Below, piece after piece: positions 3,784 through 56,782 of a stretch of DNA of 64,000 bases. The position numbers were made by a program, and so were the translations under genes. Origin of the DNA: Candidatus Magasanikiibacteriota bacterium (GTDB lineage Bacteria > Patescibacteriota > Patescibacteriia > Magasanikbacterales > GWA2-37-8); assembly GCA_963840935.1 (NCBI GenBank), contig CAWJAS010000001.1:579834-643833 (forward strand), read 5' to 3'. The notes beneath the pieces are model-generated. The model had not been told where the DNA came from and searched no databases. It saw nothing but the letters and a program-made list of their open reading frames with translations. Within the stretch, counting starts at the first letter, position 1; every line of letters starts with the position of its first letter.

Positions 3784-4700
3784 TAAAAATATTTTTTTAC
3801 GGTACTCATAATTTTGCCTCCGCTGTGCTTGGAAAAATTATCGCTTCCAATATTTTCGATGTTTCCGGGGTTGTAACCGCGCCGGACAAGCAAGTTGGAC
3901 GCGAACAAGCAGTCCAAAAATCGGCCGTAAAAATAATGGCCGAAAAATTTAACATTCCGGTTTACCAGCCGGAATCTTTAAAAGATTTTTTACCGGCTGA
4001 ATTAGCGCTCACTGATTTGGGTGTTGTTGTTGAATATGGAAAAATTATACCGCTTAATATTTTAAGCACGCCAAAACACAAAACAATTAACATACACGGT
4101 TCCCTTCTTCCAAAATATCGCGGAGCTTCACCCATCCAGTCGGCCATACTAAACGGCGAAAAAACCACGGGCATTACTCTGATGCTTATGGACGAAAAAA
4201 TGGATCACGGCCCGATGCTTAAAAAAACGGAAATACAAATATACCCGGATGAAATTAAAGATGATTTATCCGCCCGCCTTTCTCAAACAGCATCCGAATT
4301 ATTAATTTCTGTTGCCCCCGACTATATTGCCGGCAAAATAAAACCAATTGAACAGGAACATGATTCGGCAACTTATTGTAAAATTTTGACTCGTGAAGAC
4401 GGAATAATAAATTTTAGCAAATCAGCTATACAAATTTACAATCAATATCGAGCTCTGACTCCATGGCCGGGTATTTGGTGCCTTGCCGACAGCAAAAGAC
4501 TGAAACTTATTAAAATATCCATTGCCAATAAACCGGTTGAACAAGGTAAAATTATATTTGATAATACAGATATATTAATCGGCTGTGCCCAAAATTCTGC
4601 TATCAAAGCAGAGGTACTGCAATTGGAAGGTAAAAAAGCGCTCTCGGCACGTGATTTTATTAACGGTAACATCGGCCTTAATGGCTCTACGCTGAATTAA
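3780..4700 (+). CDS. fmt: methionyl-tRNA formyltransferase
   Basis: The 'HGSLLPKYRGASPIQ' formyltransferase motif is present. The gene has a 4-nt overlap with def, the classic def-fmt operon arrangement. Confidence 0.9.
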   Translation: MIKIFFYGTHNFASAVLGKIIASNIFDVSGVVTAPDKQVGREQAVQKSAVKIMAEKFNIPVYQPESLKDFLPAELALTDLGVVVEYGKIIPLNILSTPKHKTINIHGSLLPKYRGASPIQSAILNGEKTTGITLMLMDEKMDHGPMLKKTEIQIYPDEIKDDLSARLSQTASELLISVAPDYIAGKIKPIEQEHDSATYCKILTREDGIINFSKSAIQIYNQYRALTPWPGIWCLADSKRLKLIKISIANKPVEQGKIIFDNTDILIGCAQNSAIKAEVLQLEGKKALSARDFINGNIGLNGSTLN

Positions 4701-4702
4701 AT

Positions 4703-6112
4703 ATGGTTAATAAAAAAATAATCTTTTATTCAATACTCGTCTACTTTTTTTTGAGATTATTTTCTTATTTTTTCGGCTCGCCCACCCCGCTTTCAGATGG
4801 GTCCGTTGTGAACACCGCGTTTTCTGTTTTTTTGGTTATTGCGGTTGCTTATTTACTTGCAAAAAAAGATATAAGGGGCTGGCTCATAATTGCCGGGGAA
4901 TTAATGCTTGGCGGAAGCGGAAATATTTTGGCCATTGATTCAATTTCCGTGAGAACCGTGCTGTTAGTTGTTTCATTATTCATTTTTTTCACCCAGACAA
5001 TCCAAGCTAAAAAAATTCGGCAAACTTTTATCGACCCGATCAGCATACCCATTTTGTTTTTATTGCTATGGGCATCTATTTCGGCAATTATCGGCTGGCG
5101 TAATAATAATGAAATTGGCCTCATAATATCCGACTTTATCCCCTACTTATTCTTATTATATTATTATCCTTTAAAAGAACTGATTAAAAAAGATGATTTT
5201 AAAATATTCTGCCTAAATATTCTTATCTCCGCTGTATTGGCAAACGCGTTATTTATTTTGATCACGTTTATTATATTTAATCTGGAAATTACGGCAATGC
5301 AAGACTCGTATTACCATTGGTTCAGAGACATCGCTCAAGGTAAAATAACTTATTTGTCCGACGGATTTTATCGTTTGGTTTTAAACGAGCAACTACTCGT
5401 CGTGCCGATTGCCGTTTATTTTATTTTTCAGCAAATTAAACAATCCAAAAACATTAATCTTGTAATAATATTTGCCTTATCATTTATACTTGCCCTATCT
5501 TTGACCAGAATTTATTACTTGGCATTGGTTGTTTCGCTTTTTTGTTTATTTTCTCGTGAATATTGGAAAAAATGGTTTAAATATTCACTCTTAATATTGA
5601 TTTCAATTTTTATTTTTTTTACCGGCTTTTATTTGTTTGCCAGCCGTGGAATGAGTTTGGGTTGGGAATATTTTGGATTAAGAATCGGTTCAATCGCCTC
5701 GCCAGCAATTGAACAAAGTTCATTATCAAGAATGGTTTTATTACCGGAAATAATCAACAAAATTAAAAATAGCCCCGTTATCGGGTCCGGCCTCGGGTCA
5801 ACTGTCACAATTTTTAGTCCGGTATACAAAGAAACAATCACCACTCCACATTTTGACTGGGGCTATCTTGAAATAATGGCTGAAACCGGAATTATCGGCT
5901 TTATTGCATGGATAGCAATGATTTGCTATATTTTCTACTTAATAAAAAGCGATAAAAACAAAAAATCACCGCTTATTGCAGTAATCGTGGCGCTTCTTGC
6001 AATAAATATCACTTCCCCGGCGATATTTCACGTTCTTGGAGTTGTTTTAATTGTAATTATTTTAGCCCGTGTTTCTCCACAATTATCCGGCGAGCCGATT
6101 CAAAATCCTTGA
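4703..6112 (+). CDS. O-antigen ligase (Wzy_C/WaaL) family polytopic membrane protein
   Basis: The protein has many predicted TM helices, and 'HFDWGYLEIMAETGIIGF' resembles the O-antigen ligase periplasmic loop motif. Confidence 0.5.
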   Translation: MVNKKIIFYSILVYFFLRLFSYFFGSPTPLSDGSVVNTAFSVFLVIAVAYLLAKKDIRGWLIIAGELMLGGSGNILAIDSISVRTVLLVVSLFIFFTQTIQAKKIRQTFIDPISIPILFLLLWASISAIIGWRNNNEIGLIISDFIPYLFLLYYYPLKELIKKDDFKIFCLNILISAVLANALFILITFIIFNLEITAMQDSYYHWFRDIAQGKITYLSDGFYRLVLNEQLLVVPIAVYFIFQQIKQSKNINLVIIFALSFILALSLTRIYYLALVVSLFCLFSREYWKKWFKYSLLILISIFIFFTGFYLFASRGMSLGWEYFGLRIGSIASPAIEQSSLSRMVLLPEIINKIKNSPVIGSGLGSTVTIFSPVYKETITTPHFDWGYLEIMAETGIIGFIAWIAMICYIFYLIKSDKNKKSPLIAVIVALLAINITSPAIFHVLGVVLIVIILARVSPQLSGEPIQNP

Positions 6113-15927: not shown

Positions 15928-17079
15928 TTATTTTATCTCCCCTCCGCCCAAGCAAACGCCCTTAGAATAAAACACGGCGAATTGCCCCGGTGTTACCGCG
16001 CGTTGCGGTTGCGCGAATTTTACGATTAGATTACCACGTCGGCCTTTGGCCTTCTCGCAATGACATTGTTCAAGAGCCTGTCGGTGTCTAAGCCGTACTT
16101 CACATTTTAGCGGAAATTTGGGCTCTCGTCCAGCAATCCAATTGATATTTTTGACTTCCGCTTCGTTTGAATAAAGCATCGGGTCATTTTCAAATCCAAC
16201 TATCAATTGATTTTTTTTTGTATTTTTACCAACAATATATACCGACCGTTGGCTCTCATTTTTTAAACCAATTCTTTCTCCGATCGTATAAAAAGCCAAA
16301 CCGTCGTGCTCACCCAACACTTCACCCTTGGTTGAAGTGATGACGCCTTTTTTTGGTTTTATGGTTTTCATCAGGAATTTTTTCATCGGCACTTCGCCAA
16401 CAAAACAAATCCCCATGCTTTCTTCTTTTTGAGCCGTGGGCAAGCCGAATTTTTTGGCCAGATCCCTCACCTTCGTTTTTGGATACTCACCGATGGGAAA
16501 AATTATCTTTTTTAATTGCGTTTGATTAAGCTGATGCAAAAAATATGTCTGGTCTTTATTATCATCTTTTGCCGACAATAATTTGATTTTTTCTTTTTGT
16601 TCTTTTTTTGGAAATTTGATATTTGAAATTTGGAATTCCCGGTTTAACCGGGCATAGTGCCCGGTCGCCAAATAATCAAAACCTAATTTTTTTGCCTTTT
16701 GAAGCCAAGCGCCGAATTTAACAAATTTATTACACAGTACATCCGGATTCGGAGTTCTCCCGGCTTTGTATTCGCGGTACATATAGTCAAGCACAAATTT
16801 TTTGTACTCTCGCTTAAAGTCGAAACGCAAAAGAGGAATACCGATTTTTGCTGAAACCCGTAAAGCATCTTGATAATCGCCTCTCCAACAGGGCTTCGCT
16901 TCGCTACGCCCTGCAAGCGCCTCATGGGTGAATTTATCTGTAAAATCTTCATAATTAACCATAAAAGCGCCGGTCACATCATAGCCCAAGCGAACCAAAA
17001 GAGCGGCGGATACTGAAGAATCAACCCCGCCGGACATGGTGCATAATACTTTAATTTTTTTTGGTTTCGCGTTTTTCAT
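15928..17079 (-). CDS. mnmA: tRNA-specific 2-thiouridylase MnmA
   Basis: The PP-loop 'CTMSGGVDSSVSA' and the C-terminal 'AVTPGQFAVFY...CLGGG' are present. Two internal segments share DNA identity with the dispersed repeat family. Confidence 0.85.
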   Translation of the reverse strand: MKNAKPKKIKVLCTMSGGVDSSVSAALLVRLGYDVTGAFMVNYEDFTDKFTHEALAGRSEAKPCWRGDYQDALRVSAKIGIPLLRFDFKREYKKFVLDYMYREYKAGRTPNPDVLCNKFVKFGAWLQKAKKLGFDYLATGHYARLNREFQISNIKFPKKEQKEKIKLLSAKDDNKDQTYFLHQLNQTQLKKIIFPIGEYPKTKVRDLAKKFGLPTAQKEESMGICFVGEVPMKKFLMKTIKPKKGVITSTKGEVLGEHDGLAFYTIGERIGLKNESQRSVYIVGKNTKKNQLIVGFENDPMLYSNEAEVKNINWIAGREPKFPLKCEVRLRHRQALEQCHCEKAKGRRGNLIVKFAQPQRAVTPGQFAVFYSKGVCLGGGEIK

Positions 17080-24404: not shown

Positions 24405-24535
24405 TCATTACCTTTCGCAAACAGCGTCGGTCGGCTCCTGCGGCCGACCGCGCTTCTCGCTCACCACACGGCTCCTTCGGAGACCGAGCCCGTGTGGCTC
24501 CGCGACGTTGCTCAAGATAATAATAACCGGAAAAA
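24405..24535. other. GC-rich structured element (nested hairpins incl. cUUCGg loop) in AT-rich spacer; candidate small ncRNA or REP-like repeat
   Basis: Two hairpins are visible: 'ggtcggctcctgcggccgacc' and 'ccacacggctccttcggagaccgagcccgtgtgg'. The element lies just upstream of ybaB-recR. Confidence 0.3.
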
Positions 24536-28026: not shown

Positions 28027-28779
28027 GTGAACATACACGAGGTGCGTTCGACACGCGAAGTCGAGCAGTTTGTGACCGATGAATTTACGGCTCACAATTT
28101 TGACGTTGATTTGATTCACGGACTCAGGCATCTCCGTCGCGTTCGGGCCGAGTATGAAAATATTCGCCTGATGTGCGCGGACATGCTGGAACCCGAGCTG
28201 GTCAAGTGCTTGGGTGTGGCGGTGGCTGTCCATGACCTGGGCAGGATTCGCGAAGGCAACCACGCGGAAAATTCCGCGGAAATGTTTCGCTCCATGCCAA
28301 TCGAGGACCTGACGGCGGATGAAATCGAGGCAATCTACTACGCCGTCAAATACCACAATCGCGGGCTGGAATCACTCGGCATCGATAAGGCCGAAACATT
28401 CCAAGACAAGCTTTTGGGACTTTTGTGCCTTTGCGACCATGCCGACGCCGCGAGTACCGAAGGAGCGGCTCGTGCCGCTCTGCACATGGCGAACGTCAAG
28501 GCGCCGATCCTGTCCACTCGATTCTCGGCCGACCACCTGCGCGCCATAATGGTTCAAGGCGCTTCCCCGAGCATGATGAACGACTACAAGAACGACAGCT
28601 TGGTGGCGCACTGGGCGTACAACTACTTCGCCGACTTCTCCATCTGTTGCCCAATATTGCACCTTTTGAACACGCGATATTACGACGAGTGCCACGCCCC
28701 AAACGTGGTCATGTACCGCGCCCTCATCGAACCGCTTCTGATACTGCAAGAAGCGACCGATGAAGTCGCTTCCTTGTAA
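28027..28779 (+). CDS. HD-domain phosphohydrolase-like protein, GC-rich (compositionally foreign)
   Basis: It has a GTG start with the RBS 'aaggaggg', and the H...HD motif 'IHGLRHL...VAVAVHDLGRI'. The codon usage is strikingly GC-rich compared with its neighbours. Confidence 0.6.
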   Translation: MNIHEVRSTREVEQFVTDEFTAHNFDVDLIHGLRHLRRVRAEYENIRLMCADMLEPELVKCLGVAVAVHDLGRIREGNHAENSAEMFRSMPIEDLTADEIEAIYYAVKYHNRGLESLGIDKAETFQDKLLGLLCLCDHADAASTEGAARAALHMANVKAPILSTRFSADHLRAIMVQGASPSMMNDYKNDSLVAHWAYNYFADFSICCPILHLLNTRYYDECHAPNVVMYRALIEPLLILQEATDEVASL

Positions 28780-28806
28780 ATCGCACCTTGGTTGTTTCTT
28801 ATTATG

Positions 28807-28838
28807 CCCCGCGCCAAAAACGCGGGGCTTTTCTTTTG
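28807..28838 (+). terminator. rho-independent terminator after HD gene
   Basis: 'ccccgcg-ccaaaaa-cgcgggg' is followed by 'cttttcttttg'. Confidence 0.6.
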
Positions 28839-28869
28839 TCATTGCGAGGATGTTTTGGAGAGTCAACGT

Positions 28870-28910
28870 TTTCCCCCTCTTGATAAGAGGGGGCTGAGGG
28901 GGAGTCTACA
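28870..28910 (+). repeat. palindromic repeat copy B
   Basis: The sequence is 'ttccccctcttgataagagggggctgagggggagtctacac'. It overlaps the stop of the galE-like gene. Confidence 0.8.
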
Positions 28911-46237: not shown

Positions 46238-47191
46238 TTAAATTGCTGAGTTTTGGTACCATTTGTAGGTAGATTCCAATCCTTCTTTCAATTCAAATTT
46301 TGGTTGCCAACCAAGATTATTGACTTTTGAACTGTCCATCAATCTTCCGGGGGTTCCGTCGGGCTTGGTTGTATCCCAAACAATATTTCCTTTGTATCCC
46401 GTAATTTCTTGAATCAAGTTTGCCAAATCTTTGATGTTTATATCTTTTCCAGCGCCCAAATTTACAAATATATCCCCTTTTTCATTTTGCTCTTTGGTCG
46501 GATTCAAATTATTCATGAGAAATATACAACCCTCTGCCATATCATCCACGTGCAAAAATTCACGACGAGGATTGCCTGTGCCCCAAAGTATTACTTCTTT
46601 ATCACCTTTAATTTTCGCTTCATGGAATTTGCGAATCATTGCCGGAATTACATGTGATTTTTCCAAATCAAAGTTATCATTAGGGCCATATAAATTAGCA
46701 GGCATTACGGAAATAAAATTTGTGCCATATTGACGATTGTAACTCTGACACATTTTTATGCCGGCGATTTTTGCCAAGGCGTACGGCTCATTGGTTGGCT
46801 CCAAAGTTCCGGTTAATAAATATTCTTCTTTGACGGGCTCTGGGGCAAATTTTGGATAAATGCAAACCGAACCCAAAAATAAAAGTTTTTTTACTCCGTT
46901 TACGTATGACTGGTGAATAATATTATTTTGAATTTGCAAATTTTCGTATATAAATTGTGCCGGGTATGTATTGTTTGCTTAAATCCCGCCGACTTTGGCG
47001 GCGGCCAAAATTACATACTCCGGTTTTTCTTGCGCGAAAAATTCGGCAGTTGCCTGTTGGTTTGTTAAATCAAGTTCTTCGATAGTGCGATAAACCAGAT
47101 TGTTGTAACCTTGGGCTTGCAAATTGCGGACCAAGGATGAACCGACAAGGCCGGTGTGGCCGGCGATGTAAATTTTGGATGTTTTTTGCAT
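46238..47191 (-). pseudogene. fcl: GDP-L-fucose synthase (fcl) interrupted by an in-frame TAA at 46979-46981
   Basis: The N-terminal part '[19 protein letters not shown]...AAKVGGI*' is followed in the same frame by '[22 protein letters not shown]...[13 protein letters not shown]'. The alignment to E. coli Fcl is collinear across the stop. Confidence 0.6.
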
Positions 47192-47203
47192 AATTTTTAA
47201 ATA

Positions 47204-47437
47204 AAATTCTTCGCTTCGCTCAGAATGACAGGTAACTGGATTCCCGCCTACGCGGGAATGACAGTGTGCGAATAAGATTGCTTCGGCGTCCCTTTGGGAC
47301 TTCTCGCAATGACAGGGCTTCGCTTCGCTACGCCCTGTAAACGCCAGGTTCACTTATTAACTACGCCCTGTAAACGCCAGATTCGCTTCGCTCAGAATGA
47401 CAACGAACTGGATTCCCGATCAAGTCGGGAATGACAA
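47204..47437. repeat. cluster of short GC-rich hairpin repeats (units ending ...cgc(t/a)(cag)aatgaca, and cagggcttcgcttcgctacgccctg) filling gmd-fcl spacer
   Basis: There are at least five sub-elements, and the same units recur at 16043, 16889, 28838, 50921 and 51226. Confidence 0.8.
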
Positions 47438-50707: not shown

Positions 50708-51226
50708 ATGAAATATATTGCCAAAAATGAAGCGGAAACCGTTAAAATAGGCGAAAAAATCTCTGCCAAGCTTAAAGGCGGAGATATTTTGTGTTTGTAC
50801 GGGGATTTGGGCGCCGGAAAGACTACTTTGGTAAAAGGGTTGGCGAAAGGGTTTGGGATAACAAAAGAGGTGGTTAGTCCGTCGTTTGCGATTATGAATG
50901 TTTATGAAATTGGTGATTGCCGAAGGGATTCTTCGACTTCGCTCAGAATGACAGGGCTTCGCTTCGCTACGCCCTGTAAACGCCAAGCTAACTTAACTAT
51001 GCCCTGTAAACGAAAAAGCACAGTAAAACAGTTGGCGCATTTTGATTTGTATCGTTTAAAAGATGTTGAAGAATTTTTGGATACGGGTGGAGCGGATTAC
51101 TTGGGCGCGCCGGACACGATTTGTGTTATTGAATGGCCGGAAAAAATTGAGGAGCTTTTGAAAAATAAAAAAACGATTGACATAGCAATCGAGCATTTAA
51201 AAAATGGGAGAGAAATTAAATTTTAG
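50708..51226 (+). CDS. tsaE: tRNA t6A biosynthesis ATPase TsaE with ~30-aa in-frame repeat-derived insertion
   Basis: The P-loop 'GDLGAGKTT', 'SPSFAIMNVYE' and 'HFDLYRL' are present. A repeat-encoded segment lies between the last two motifs. Confidence 0.75.
   Translation: MKYIAKNEAETVKIGEKISAKLKGGDILCLYGDLGAGKTTLVKGLAKGFGITKEVVSPSFAIMNVYEIGDCRRDSSTSLRMTGLRFATPCKRQANLTMPCKRKSTVKQLAHFDLYRLKDVEEFLDTGGADYLGAPDTICVIEWPEKIEELLKNKKTIDIAIEHLKNGREIKF
50921..51012. repeat. dispersed hairpin repeat copy inside tsaE ORF
   Basis: 'cttcgacttcgctcagaatgacagggcttcgcttcgctacgccctgtaaacgcca...' is near-identical to 47381-47345. Confidence 0.8.
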
Positions 51227-51848
51227 GAGATTGCTTCGTCGACCCTTTGGGGCTCCTCGCAATGACAAGACGAACGTGGGATTGCTTCGGCGTCCCTTTG
51301 GGACTTCTCGCAATGACAGATAAGGAAAATTCGCAACCGCAATAATTTTGCCTATATATCCCCCGCTCTGATGTTAATTTTTGCCCTTTTTCTTGCCTGC
51401 CTTTGCTTTTCCAATTTTCATCCAAAAATTCCAAACCGAACTCATCCGCCAAGCGCTTTCCAATTCCGCCGATTATATCGGCGTTTTTGTTTCTGCCACT
51501 GGTCAAACTTGAGGCAAATATTTTAATATTATTTTCTTTGGCGTACTCCGCGGTTCGTTTTAGGCGCGATGCAAAACATACGGCGCATCTTTTGCCGGAT
51601 TCAGGCTCACCCTCCATTCCAGCAATCGCTTTTTTCCAGCTTTCGTGTTCATAATCAAGGTCGATGAATGGCACGCTCCATTCATCGCACACGCGGATAA
51701 CTTCGGCTTTGCGCTTTTCGTATTCATTTTTTGGAAAAATATTGGGATTATAAAACAAAACCGTTAAATCATATTGATTTTTCAGTTCATCAATAATTGC
51801 GATACTGCATGGAGCACAGCAAGCATGAAGCAAAAGCTGTTTTGCCAT
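51216..51848 (-). CDS. queH: epoxyqueuosine reductase QueH (DUF208) with repeat-derived C-terminal tail
   Basis: 'LLLHACCAPCS' and '...YCGCEFS' are present, followed by a 34-aa tail '[35 protein letters not shown]'. Confidence 0.75.
   Translation of the reverse strand: MAKQLLLHACCAPCSIAIIDELKNQYDLTVLFYNPNIFPKNEYEKRKAEVIRVCDEWSVPFIDLDYEHESWKKAIAGMEGEPESGKRCAVCFASRLKRTAEYAKENNIKIFASSLTSGRNKNADIIGGIGKRLADEFGLEFLDENWKSKGRQEKGQKLTSERGIYRQNYCGCEFSLSVIARSPKGTPKQSHVRLVIARSPKGSTKQSPKI
51226..51320. repeat. two tandem copies of the 'gattgcttcg(g/t)cg(t/a)ccctttggg(a/g)ct(t/c)ctcgcaatgaca' unit
   Basis: Direct sequence comparison with 47270-47313. Confidence 0.8.
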
Positions 51849-53964: not shown

Positions 53965-55902
53965 TTATAATTGTACTCGGAATAACCGCCAGTCGGACCA
54001 AGAAGTGTATGTGCCGTCCGTAAACTTTGCGCGGACGCGCACTCTGTATTCATTTGAATATTTGAGGTCCAAACCGACGCTGGTTAAAACTGAAGTGTAC
54101 AATCCTTCTTCAAGCCAGCCGGTGCCCGATTTGTAATTAACATTAATTTCGTATGACACGGCGCCGGTAATGGTATACCAAGTCGGAAAAACATATCGTG
54201 AATATAATGTTTGATTTTCTGTTGGCGTGGAAATGACAGGCGAGGTGTAGCTGTATGATGAGCCGATGTTATAATTGAAATATCTATAATCAGACCAATT
54301 GGTGTAATTGCCGTCACTAAAATTCGCTCTTACTTGAACGCGATATTCATTTGTATAATATAAATATTTAGTCAAATAAAGCGAAGTTACATTTGTGTTT
54401 GATTCAATAAGCCAGTTGCTTCCTGATTTGTATTCAACACGGACATTGTATGAAGTCGCGCTAGGAACTGAATTCCAACGAACAGTCACGGATTGGCTGG
54501 ATGAAAAATATTGGTTCGCATATGGATCGGTGATTGTCGGCGGAGATTGCGGGTTATAATAACTGTCGCTTTGACCAATATTAAAATATCTCCAATCGGA
54601 ATAATTGGTAGTAACGCCATCAACAAAGACACCACGAACACTTACGCGATATTCATTTGTGTATGGAAAGTATTTGGTTAAATAAAGAGAAGTGACATTT
54701 GTGTTTGACTCACTATACCAATTTCCATTTGATTCATATTCGATTCGAACATCATAAGCCGTCGCATTTGTGACCGAATTCCATCTCACGGTTACATTTG
54801 AGCCGGTAGAATAATATTGGTTGGCGTATGGTTCGGTGATGGTCGGGGCAGTGTAGGAATAATTGTTATTACTTTGTCCGACATTGAAATATCTCCAATC
54901 GGAATAATTGGTAGTAACGCCATCAACAAATACACCGCGAACGCTCACTCGATATTCATTTGTGTAGGAAAAATATTTGGTTAAATAAAGAGAAGTGACA
55001 TTTGTGTTAGACTCACTATACCAATTTCCATTTGATTCATATTCAATTCGGACATCATAAGCCGTCGCATTTGTGACCGAATTCCATCTCACGGTTACAT
55101 TTGAGCCGGTAGAATAATATTGGTTGGCGTATGGTTCGGTGATGGTCGGAGCAGTGTAGGAATAATTGTTATTATTGTTGTTGTTTGTGGAATAAGTATT
55201 ATAAAAATATCTCCAAGAAGACCATTCACTTTTGTTACCCAAATTGTCTCCGGCATAAACACGATAGCGGAATTGTCCATCACCCCAATTTGATATGTTG
55301 TAATTAACAGCACTCACGCCGGAAGAAATAATTTGAGAATCCTTGCTTTCCCATTGGCTCAAAGAAGTATTCCATTTATGAACTTCGTAGCCGTATTTGG
55401 TGGCGGAATTCACATCAGACCAATCAAAATATATTGAGGATTGATTATATTGTTCCCCATTGTTTGGAAGATTAATACTTGGTGTGCTTAATTTTGTTTG
55501 ATTTTTGGTATTGAAAGTAAAATATCTATATTCAGACCATTGGCCGACTTGGTTGTTCCACATATTGCCGACCGCGCGCACACGCCAGCGAAATTGATTG
55601 TCGGCTCCGGGAACTGTAACGCTAAAAGTATTGCCGACGACATTATATGTTCTGGCATTTTGCCATTTAATTGTTTTGCTAACGCAAGTGTCGCAAGCGA
55701 TTTCCACTTGATAATTATTGGCTCCATAAATGGAAGTCCAACTGAAATTAGCCATCCTCGGATAATTGGTCAAAACCTGATTATTTGTGGGATAGCTGAG
55801 CGACGGCGCGTTGTAGGCGGCCTTTGCCGGATATGATATGCCAAAAGCCGTAAAAATAACGGCAAAAACTAAAACCCAGTTAAAAATGCGATTCATTTTC
55901 AT
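53965..55902 (-). CDS. secreted/cell-surface protein with four ~100-aa tandem beta-rich (FN3/Ig-like) repeats
   Basis: A signal peptide 'MKMNRIFNWVLVFAVIFTAFGISYPAKA' is present. Repeats 2 and 3 are nearly identical at the DNA level. Confidence 0.6.
   Translation of the reverse strand: MKMNRIFNWVLVFAVIFTAFGISYPAKAAYNAPSLSYPTNNQVLTNYPRMANFSWTSIYGANNYQVEIACDTCVSKTIKWQNARTYNVVGNTFSVTVPGADNQFRWRVRAVGNMWNNQVGQWSEYRYFTFNTKNQTKLSTPSINLPNNGEQYNQSSIYFDWSDVNSATKYGYEVHKWNTSLSQWESKDSQIISSGVSAVNYNISNWGDGQFRYRVYAGDNLGNKSEWSSWRYFYNTYSTNNNNNNNYSYTAPTITEPYANQYYSTGSNVTVRWNSVTNATAYDVRIEYESNGNWYSESNTNVTSLYLTKYFSYTNEYRVSVRGVFVDGVTTNYSDWRYFNVGQSNNNYSYTAPTITEPYANQYYSTGSNVTVRWNSVTNATAYDVRIEYESNGNWYSESNTNVTSLYLTKYFPYTNEYRVSVRGVFVDGVTTNYSDWRYFNIGQSDSYYNPQSPPTITDPYANQYFSSSQSVTVRWNSVPSATSYNVRVEYKSGSNWLIESNTNVTSLYLTKYLYYTNEYRVQVRANFSDGNYTNWSDYRYFNYNIGSSYSYTSPVISTPTENQTLYSRYVFPTWYTITGAVSYEINVNYKSGTGWLEEGLYTSVLTSVGLDLKYSNEYRVRVRAKFTDGTYTSWSDWRLFRVQL
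54584..55190. repeat. 2 x 303-bp near-perfect tandem repeat inside surface-protein gene
   Basis: 'aaatatctccaatcggaataattggtagtaacgccatcaacaaa...' recurs at 54584 and 54887. Confidence 0.8.
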
Positions 55903-56496: not shown

Positions 56497-56568
56497 GGCC
56501 CGTTCGTCTATCAGTTAGGACACGGCCCTCTCAAGGCTGAAAGACGGGTGCGATTCCCGTACGGGCTA
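56497..56568 (+). tRNA. tRNA-Glu (anticodon CUC), no encoded CCA
   Basis: It was folded manually. The 7-bp acceptor stem has G1-U72. The D-stem is gtct/ggac. The anticodon stem is cggcc/ggctg and the loop 'cuCUCaa' has U33 and A37. The T-arm is acggg-TGCGATT-cccgt, and the discriminator is A. Confidence 0.55.
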
Positions 56569-56606: not shown

Positions 56607-56619
56607 GTATTCTGACCAG

Positions 56620-56782
56620 GGAGTCGCACGGGCAGGAAGTGAGACGTGAAGTTTTTGCGGAAGCAAAAACGAAACGCTTGAACGTCGTCAGACTGCCAGT
56701 GGCAGTCTGACGCTGCCCAGGACAAAGGAGTCGAGCCGATTGTGGTCGGCTCGGCGACGCGGAATTCCCGTACGGGCTACAA
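56620..56782 (+). other. GC-rich structured segment ending with duplicate of tRNA-Glu T-arm/acceptor 3' end; candidate ncRNA or att-site remnant
   Basis: There are perfect hairpins 'cagactgccagtggcagtctg' and 'gagccgattgtggtcggctc'. The 3' 21-mer 'attcccgtacgggctacaaat' is identical to the tRNA 3' end. Confidence 0.3.

Follow-up and report, generated by a model that had tools for sequence, protein, structure and literature searches.

Probable in-frame copies of short hairpin-forming repeats in the tRNA-modification gene mnmA of a Candidatus Magasanikiibacteriota bacterium

Introduction

The DNA considered here is a stretch of 64,000 nucleotides (nt) from Candidatus Magasanikiibacteriota bacterium (assembly GCA_963840935.1, contig CAWJAS010000001.1, positions 579,834 to 643,833 of the forward strand), hereafter the window, and our theme is a family of short hairpin-forming repeats, two copies of which lie inside mnmA, the gene for the tRNA 2-thiouridine synthase. 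This gene (15928-17079, minus strand) encodes 383 amino acids and is intact, as judged from its open reading frame (ORF), its Pfam architecture and 8,000 homologues; the protein matches PDB entry 2HMA with E = 5.7e-81 and, since the PP-loop (SGGVDS), C116, C225 and all catalytic residues are invariant in an alignment of 30 MnmA sequences, it looks functional. Its nearest relatives in a search of 5.8 billion proteins are from Patescibacteria (Magasanikbacteria-like) and vary in length from 337 to 448 residues, because the alignment of 30 Patescibacteria MnmA contains at least four hypervariable indel sites in an otherwise highly conserved protein. We argue, with a probability of roughly 85%, that the segments found at two of these sites, here called sites 1 and 4, are in-frame copies of short, interspersed, hairpin-forming repeats.

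Protein-level comparisons were based on alignments of 30 MnmA and 20 TsaE sequences, and empty and filled sites in relatives were compared at the nucleotide level. Four relatives carry both a protein and a locus handle (P0002 is encoded at L001, P0003 at L003, P0006 at L029, and P0122 at L015). Structural context was taken from an AlphaFold2 model of MnmA built from the 30-sequence alignment, with a mean predicted local distance difference test score (pLDDT) of 80.8.

Repeat units within mnmA

The family is modular and made up of hairpin units of 25-40 nt that are richer in GC than the window (GC 0.39). Unit A is 39 nt long (GATTGCTTCGGCGTCCCTTTGGGACTTCTCGCAATGACA), unit B reads …ATTCTTCGCTTCGCTCAGAATGACA, unit C reads CTGGATTCCCGCCTACGCGGGAATGACA and has a variant with another loop, C′, and unit D, of 33 nt (GGGCTTCGCTTCGCTACGCCCTGTAAACGCCAG), has a variant D′.

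Site 1 of mnmA is occupied by a copy of unit D (16888-16921, plus strand), a hairpin of CAGGGC, a 13-nt loop and GCCCTG, whose gene strand codes for MnmA residues 53-64, directly before the invariant Cys-Trp of the protein. Its 25-mer, CAGGGCTTCGCTTCGCTACGCCCTG, which is included in unit D, is found exactly at 16889-16913, 47313-47337 and 50952-50976, with no match in 100 dinucleotide shuffles. An earlier reading of the sequence alone had pointed out this 25/25 identity between mnmA and two other places; the copies are real, but the positions it gave for them (47314 and 50948) have to be replaced by those above. In local alignments the match extends over 16888-16921, with 32/34 identities to both 47312-47345 and 50951-50984, and scores 58, the maximum for about 2,900 random windows being 30. 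The adjoining flank (16922-16950), which also differs from the closest relative, bears no significant likeness to the repeats (p about 0.13), and the idea that the whole 60-nt replaced block at this site is a D′ remnant was dropped on account of this value outside the 34 nt. The region is 11 residues longer than in the solved MnmA structures 2HMA and 2DER, in agreement with the excess of about 10 residues over E. coli MnmA proposed earlier.

The same site differs widely among relatives. The closest, L001, is 94.1% identical to the window mnmA over shared codons (codon alignment) and yet has a shorter segment without unit D, ESDDAIAGESC(W); L003 has the D core three times in tandem, 27 nt each, two of the three copies being devoid of the 3′ arm; and L029 has a canonical D, read in frame. 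These alleles recur in independent assemblies, which agree: that of P0003 is present on six contigs from several samples and that of P0002 on two contigs.

At site 4 lies a 37-nt copy of unit A (16029-16065, plus strand; GATTACCACGTCGGCCTTTGGCCTTCTCGCAATGACA), which can be aligned to unit A at 47276-47314 and 51280-51318 if two small gaps are allowed. Its 15-mer CTTCTCGCAATGACA (16051-16065) recurs without mismatch in two other units, and the alignment score of 37 compares with a random mean of 11.8 (standard deviation 2.2), or z of about 11. The match had been noticed before at 16043-16065, which stands; that extent, however, was too short, and the unit is complete at 37 nt, old and partly decayed. 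It is SRM-like, in the sense discussed below, in that its reverse complement begins TGTCATTGCGAG and finishes AATC. In MnmA it is read as CHCEKAKGRRGN(L), the encoded peptide CHCEKAKGRRGNL spanning residues 339-351, so that the peptides assigned by the sequence-only reading to the two fragments are borne out at residues 53-64 and 339-351. Comparison of the short form of site 4 in L029 (AAATGT, GTAGTTAAAAAT, AATCTT) with that in the window (CAATGT, CATTGCGAG…CGACGTGGT, AATCTA) indicates that the unit ends, TGT…AATC, coincide with a host TGT (Cys339) and a host AATC, each present in the host as a single copy. P0005, P0006 and P0007 read CVINKN-KV here, without the unit.

In the AlphaFold2 model both unit-derived segments fall in loops. 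Site 1 (residues 44-61) is modelled as an unstructured loop (pLDDT <50) between strand 34-41 and helix 64-79, and site 4 as a beta-hairpin tip in the C-terminal barrel (pLDDT about 88), between strands E337-343 and E351-360. Site 2 is likewise a low-confidence loop in this model. At site 3, L029 and L030 have in-frame inverted doublets of B-type and C′-type units, and the window is empty.

A further lineage-specific in-frame segment lies at 16588-16644 (MnmA residues 146-164, NREFQISNIKFPKKEQKEK). It is single-copy in the window and comprises a perfect 15-nt palindrome (CCCGGTTTAACCGGG, 16638-16652), GAATTC, and CAAATTTCAAAT-type repeats. L001 and L003 have ATCAAAACATTAAAACATCAAAACATTAAAACA (‘TLKHQNIKT’) in its place, and the TsaE loop of P0132 and P0164 is made up of TLKHQNIKT as well; a peptide common to MnmA and TsaE hints at another family of in-frame inserts, this one AT-rich.

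The repeat family elsewhere in the window

Outside mnmA, the units stand head to tail in an intergenic array between gmd and fcl (47206-47436, plus strand), in the order B (47206-47230), C (47236-47263), A (47276-47314), D (47315-47347), D′ (47348-47380), B (47381-47402) and C′ (47408-47436). They also enter a second coding sequence, tsaE (50708-51226), as a 33-residue in-frame insert (50915-51013, plus strand) composed of B (50926-50953), D (50954-50986) and a D′ fragment (50987-51012), across which the TsaE domain recognised by Pfam is split in two stretches. This tsaE site is empty in the closest orthologue (L015, P0122, 86% amino acid identity), whereas L016 has only unit B there and L017 has unit C, with an exit frame that differs, so that different units (B, B+D, C) occupy one position in different lineages. 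The tsaE/queH spacer (51229-51318, plus strand) contributes A′ (51229-51267) and A (51280-51318); queH (51216-51848, minus strand) has lost its usual stop and reads on through these two A units, gaining 34 residues, which lie outside the QueH Pfam domain, as this stops at residue 176 of 210. At the same spot L015 has A, D and another unit.

When 63 non-nested ORFs of the window were scanned for unit-encoded peptides, convincing copies were found only in mnmA, tsaE and queH. All three unit-carrying reading frames belong to tRNA-modification enzymes, at only two independent loci; this bias may be coincidence, or may reflect relaxed constraint on such genes.

The units themselves do not appear to be built for coding. 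Of their possible reading frames 40/60 are open and base composition predicts a share of about 0.69, which rules out a ‘coding design’ and leaves the coding copies as survivors. As single-stranded DNA (ssDNA) they fold to different degrees: C (-8.7 kcal/mol, z = -4.9) and C′ (-7.7 kcal/mol, z = -3.7) strongly, D moderately, A modestly (-5.1 kcal/mol) and B weakly. Unit D accompanies the other units as a hairpin attached immediately to their leader side: it is preceded by …ACA in all five Magasanikbacteria-type copies, with the join …ACA|GGGC…, and in the window tsaE it is appended directly behind the …AATGACA of B. Neither the whole window at Rfam gathering thresholds nor the array in E-value mode returned a family for the units, and a scan of the window for GC islands that might mark further units was too unspecific.

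Direction of insertion and fate of the copies

The orthologues decide which way the sequences moved. At the same sites they are empty, triplicated, short, intact or decayed, from which it follows that repeats entered mnmA and not the reverse. That the element sits in frame within coding DNA, as first suggested from the sequence, is supported, in that orthologues without units are shorter and unrelated there. The alternative offered alongside it, that the intergenic units are fragments copied out of mnmA, could appeal to the identical 25-mers in the gene and the intergenic arrays, and to the unit-terminal TGT that is also a conserved mnmA Cys codon at both sites; against it, the closest mnmA orthologues have no unit sequences, units lie in spacers and in tsaE and queH in other frames or orientations, units almost identical to these are found in unrelated phyla and in viral contigs that have no mnmA, and unit C is the Neisseria NTS/dRS3 motif (see below). 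We hold this alternative to be very improbable. Membership in the family, direction from repeat into gene, loop location, recurrence at the same sites, a series of decay stages and the excess conservation of the site-1 copy are firm components of the reading that mnmA harbours in-frame repeat copies.

Still less credible, to the point of being negligible, is that the matches stem from chance, convergent codon usage or a chimeric assembly. The units are indeed short and GC-rich, hairpin repeats can misassemble, and the 25-mer is found at contig ends in Bryobacter; but no shuffle reproduces the matches, the frames are intact, and filled alleles come from independent samples and assemblers. Nor was the pattern seen that the sequence-only reading had named as the mark of convergence or chance, namely identical peptides encoded by unrelated codons in genomes free of the repeats.

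In a neighbour-joining tree from 323 gap-free columns, filled and empty states are interleaved. The window, P0003 and P0006 have unit D at site 1; P0002, P0004 and P0005 lack it and have one ‘empty’ allele in common, and P0009 and P0019 have a variant of D that their sisters P0020 and P0023 do not share. When the window is compared with L001, whole segments are replaced at sites 1 and 2 of genes that are otherwise 94% identical; the window is like L003 at the first of these sites, and L001 is like L003 at the second. Such a mosaic is better explained by alleles having been exchanged through recombination, or by gains and losses having occurred repeatedly, than by one event.

The two copies have had different fates. 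The site-1 element is 34/34 identical between the window and L003, their host genes being 79.5% identical (62% at third positions), and about 91% identical to those in L029, L031 and L032, with host genes at 67-76%; its conservation greatly exceeds that of the gene around it. This copy thus looks ‘live’, its identity being kept by gene conversion, DNA-level selection or recurrent site-specific insertion. At site 4, where the window copy has lost its outer stem, decay proceeds at about the rate of mnmA itself: an ATTGC/GCAAT stem is intact in L033, the versions of L003 and L032 are decayed, and the peptide part GRRGNLIV persists. Site 4 is a fossil unit, by now ordinary coding sequence that has possibly been co-opted.

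The conservation at site 1 raises the question of whether the hairpin is retained for a role in cis, as a recombination or cleavage signal on incoming ssDNA or as mRNA structure, and is more than mere selfish DNA. Besides the 34/34 identity, and that of about 91% in more distant lineages, such a role would be in line with the stem of L032, kept despite a loop indel that shifts the internal frame, with RNA folds of -13 to -16 kcal/mol for filled site-1 alleles as compared with -3 to -5 for empty ones, with the recombination-like mosaic points at sites 1 and 2, and with the part played by NTS in Neisseria transformation. Yet the stems of L031, of L033 and of site 4 have decayed without loss of the peptide insert, two of the three L003 copies have no 3′ arm, close relatives lack the element altogether, and gene conversion from other copies would explain the conservation equally well. 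As to the RNA-level conservation of the hairpin at 16889-16913, which the sequence-only reading had proposed as a check, no compensatory changes were seen among orthologues, and the stems, being invariant, offer no covariation evidence for a conserved RNA structure. On balance we regard a cis role as unlikely, albeit with some claim to attention.

A second possibility, which we also rate as doubtful without dismissing it, is that the inserted peptides were co-opted as parts of MnmA under protein-level selection, especially the beta-hairpin of site 4. There, G(R)RGNLIV is conserved in several lineages as the DNA hairpin decays, the segment is confidently modelled as an extended beta-hairpin (pLDDT about 88), and the filled loop, with 21 residues, is near in length to that of Streptococcus pneumoniae MnmA (18), the short form in the candidate phyla radiation (CPR) having 14. 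On the other hand, many close orthologues function with the short loop, and site 1, for which disorder is predicted, can be dispensed with in a relative that is 94% identical.

Relation to NTS and SRM motifs

In blastn searches the array gave multicopy matches in Neisseria gonorrhoeae, Photobacterium and a Microcystis phage, with 7-8 places in N. gonorrhoeae chromosomes. The matching Neisseria repeat, NTS, is CGTCATTCCCGCGMAVGCGGGAATCYRG and includes dRS3, ATTCCC-N8-GGGAAT, and its role in Neisseria transformation is established (PMC11893778). Ssn-related motifs (SRMs) are oriented hairpins that small GIY-YIG nucleases, Ssn (single-domain, cd10448), bind as ssDNA and cut, on ssDNA, a few nucleotides upstream of the SRM leader; ssn genes flanked by SRMs look like insertion sequences, and genomes rich in SRM include those of Rickettsia, Wolbachia and Neisseria (PMC11893778).

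The reverse complement of unit C, TGTCATTCCCGCGTAGGCGGGAATCCAG, matches NTS at 26/28 positions. Unit C (47236-47263) also fits the published SRM pattern, HGTCWYN(0-2)YYVSBRHN(0-5)WNVSBRGN(0-2)RNCYNB (PMC11893778), as the one hit in the window where 0.07 are expected, and, as ATTCCCGCCTACGCGGGAAT, it satisfies the dRS3 20-bp palindrome ATTCCC-N8-GGGAAT; C′ has N9 in place of N8, and A, B and D do not conform to it. The SRM pattern is also matched by the unit that lies in frame in the TsaE of L017. On the reverse strand, TGTCATT…AATC is found in A, A′, the site-4 copy of mnmA, the tsaE copy of B, C and C′, all of which have the arrangement of leader, hairpin and trailing C. The leaderless D does not have it, and the intergenic B copies are without the trailing C (the reverse complement of the first ends …AATTT). 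Judged by its letters, the layout of A, B and C (leader GTCATT, hairpin, AATC) is thus that of NTS/dRS3 and SRMs. D abuts the leader (…GCCC|TGTCATT…) and by analogy would lie within a few nucleotides of the Ssn cut.

Distribution beyond this lineage

NTS-like patterns occur in at least 120 viral contigs of IMG/VR, mostly outside genes: among the matches listed, 17% lie deep in an ORF as compared with 62% of random positions. At least six single-domain GIY-YIG genes (Pfam PF01541) are present in the viral loci listed, and four of the six lie 24-76 nt from the motif, so that the association of motif and nuclease is independently reproduced in viral loci. Some copies nevertheless look in frame: one IMG/VR contig (L092, GC 0.46) has NTS-like motifs at 3944-3969 and 5153-5178 deep within a single ORF of about 870 residues, both read as VIPAQAGIQ, and in-frame hairpins of the SRM type accordingly seem to occur outside CPR bacteria too.

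Units D and A are absent from IMG/VR viral contigs. Nine metagenome contigs, whose GC ranges from 0.39 to 0.65, contain a near-identical unit A, in most cases as an inverted doublet of the REPIN kind. The D 25-mer is present in Bryobacter metagenome-assembled genomes (MAGs), in a Chlorobiota MAG and in another Magasanikiibacteriota MAG, and is identical across three phyla. In the Bryobacter MAGs (L005-L014) the exact 25-mer is the apex of a long hairpin, GGATGGGGGCC…GGCCCCCATCC, and lies about 85 nt away from the end of a multicopy element with which many contigs terminate, and in the Chlorobiota MAG (L013) it is repeated in tandem about every 84 nt.

Comparison with other repeat families

The closest precedent for translated repeats is that of the Rickettsia palindromic elements (RPEs), described in PMC10969869 as palindromes of about 100-150 bp that lie in frame in genes unrelated to one another, where the fold permits them (Ogata et al., 2000, 2002). 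As with RPEs, the present units occur in frame in housekeeping genes of reduced genomes, are presumably translated, sit at fold-compatible positions and form a series from proliferation to decay. In-frame insertion is found at two sites of mnmA, in tsaE, at the C-terminus of queH and at additional sites of orthologues, and loop position at sites 1 and 4 in the AlphaFold2 model. Length sets the two apart, RPEs being single elements of about 100-150 bp in families RPE-1 to RPE-10 and the units here combinable modules of 25-39 nt. Moreover, RPEs are specific to Rickettsia, whereas these units are found in Patescibacteria, with near-identical ones in other phyla, and the likeness is one of description.

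NTS and SRMs are approached from another side, through the NTS match and pattern fit of unit C, the GTCATT leader, hairpin and AATC shared by A, B and C′, and the clustering around genes; A and B have other stems, however, and D another hairpin, and PMC11893778 makes no mention of intragenic copies or of CPR. Repetitive extragenic palindromes (REP/BIME) and the REPIN-RAYT system of E. coli and Pseudomonas are short palindromes in mosaic intergenic arrays (PMC3116915). Resemblances to them lie in the arrays, which are reminiscent of BIME/NIME mosaics, in a presumed ssDNA-hairpin biology, and in the inverted doublets with spacer that unit A forms in metagenome contigs and that L029 and L030 have at site 3 of mnmA. 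The leader, on the other hand, is GTCATT and not GTAG, the arrays of the window run head to tail, and no RAYT was seen; REPs are also by definition extragenic and vertically inherited, while the present units are partly intragenic and common to several phyla. Miniature inverted-repeat transposable elements such as ERIC, Correia/NEMIS and Nezha are likewise small non-autonomous repeats with occasional in-frame ORF fusions, but are several-fold longer than these modules, in which no terminal inverted repeats with target-site duplication were detected.

Literature searches revealed no link between Patescibacteria and repeats of the REP, REPIN or SRM type, nor any for the encoded peptide signatures. 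What is new is therefore the presence of shorter, modular in-frame palindromes in Patescibacteria; the kinds to which they belong, RPE-like elements and SRM/REP-like mosaic repeats, are known.

A possible mechanism and its significance

The observations would be accommodated by the following scheme. Units would accumulate head to tail in intergenic spacers and at gene ends and would now and then insert or recombine into coding DNA, where purifying selection would retain only frame-keeping, stop-free copies in tolerant loops, the protein being translated through them. A resident copy would then either stay ‘live’, near to the family sequence, as at site 1, or decay to plain loop-coding DNA, as at site 4, and filled and empty alleles appear to be swapped among related lineages through recombination. 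Copying could be brought about by an enzyme acting on ssDNA hairpins, such as Ssn, or by microhomology or homologous recombination after DNA uptake.

Several points weigh against the interpretation of the mnmA segments as inserted repeats. The difference between the window and L001 at site 1 is a replacement of 30 nt by 60 nt, only 34 of which are demonstrably repeat-derived, and the unit D found there is solitary and without a GTCATT leader. Units A, B and D fall outside the strict SRM pattern, as do C′ and the mnmA copies (D and A-like). Comparison of empty and filled sites in tsaE and at site 4 disclosed no target-site duplication or clean excision footprint. No gene for Ssn/GIY-YIG, RAYT, IS200/605 or another transposase was detected by motif scan, ORF inventory, Pfam searches of unassigned ORFs and tblastn with seed sequences in the 64-kb window, which makes up some 8% of the contig of 770,905 bp from which it comes, and in the related CPR loci covered. 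Finally, translation through the units is presumed from intact frames only, and protein databases are biased to intact ORFs.

A bolder and rather improbable idea is that NTS/SRM hairpins in CPR core genes act as portable break or recombination signals that swap loop cassettes during DNA uptake. If so, an Ssn-like system would drive intragenic mosaicism and the diversification of loops, and reading the hairpin as a signal would also explain why an embedded hairpin stays identical as its host gene diverges.

In-frame palindromes, held to be a peculiarity of Rickettsia, are now found in an unrelated lineage with reduced genomes, and unit C is the NTS/dRS3/SRM motif, with which a new family of ssDNA nucleases, site-specific in their action, was connected in 2025. 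Protein remodelling of the RPE type is thereby joined to the biology of SRM and Ssn, with the prediction that SRM-type hairpins can code. Insertions of this sort would explain much of the length variation of conserved CPR proteins, which bears on annotation, phylogenomic alignments and structure prediction, and they amount to natural ‘permissive-site maps’ of the enzymes concerned.

Other features of the window

An isolated, degenerate A-type remnant (28837-28852, plus strand; TGTCATTGCGAGGATG) is intergenic and follows an ORF with a weak HD-domain match in a GC-rich island (28027-28893, GC 0.56-0.60 as compared with 0.39), which also has a separate hairpin, CCCCCTCTTGATAAGAGGGGG (28873-28893), and may have been horizontally acquired. 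Beside the array, fcl (GDP-L-fucose synthase) is split into the ORFs 46979-47192 and 46238-46939 by one in-frame TAA (46977-46979, minus strand); a unit as the cause was rejected, as the break is a plain TAA with no unit nearby. The gene may be a pseudogene, the stop may be an error of sequencing, or it may be read through. Two GC-rich, structured-looking intergenic stretches, at 24414-24517 and at 56612-56781, the latter just downstream of a tRNA (56497-56568), gave no Rfam family above threshold. Lastly, a unit of about 300 nt is repeated three times in tandem at 54250-55158, with 65-93% identity, inside a large ORF (53965-55902), which suggests a repeat-domain protein.

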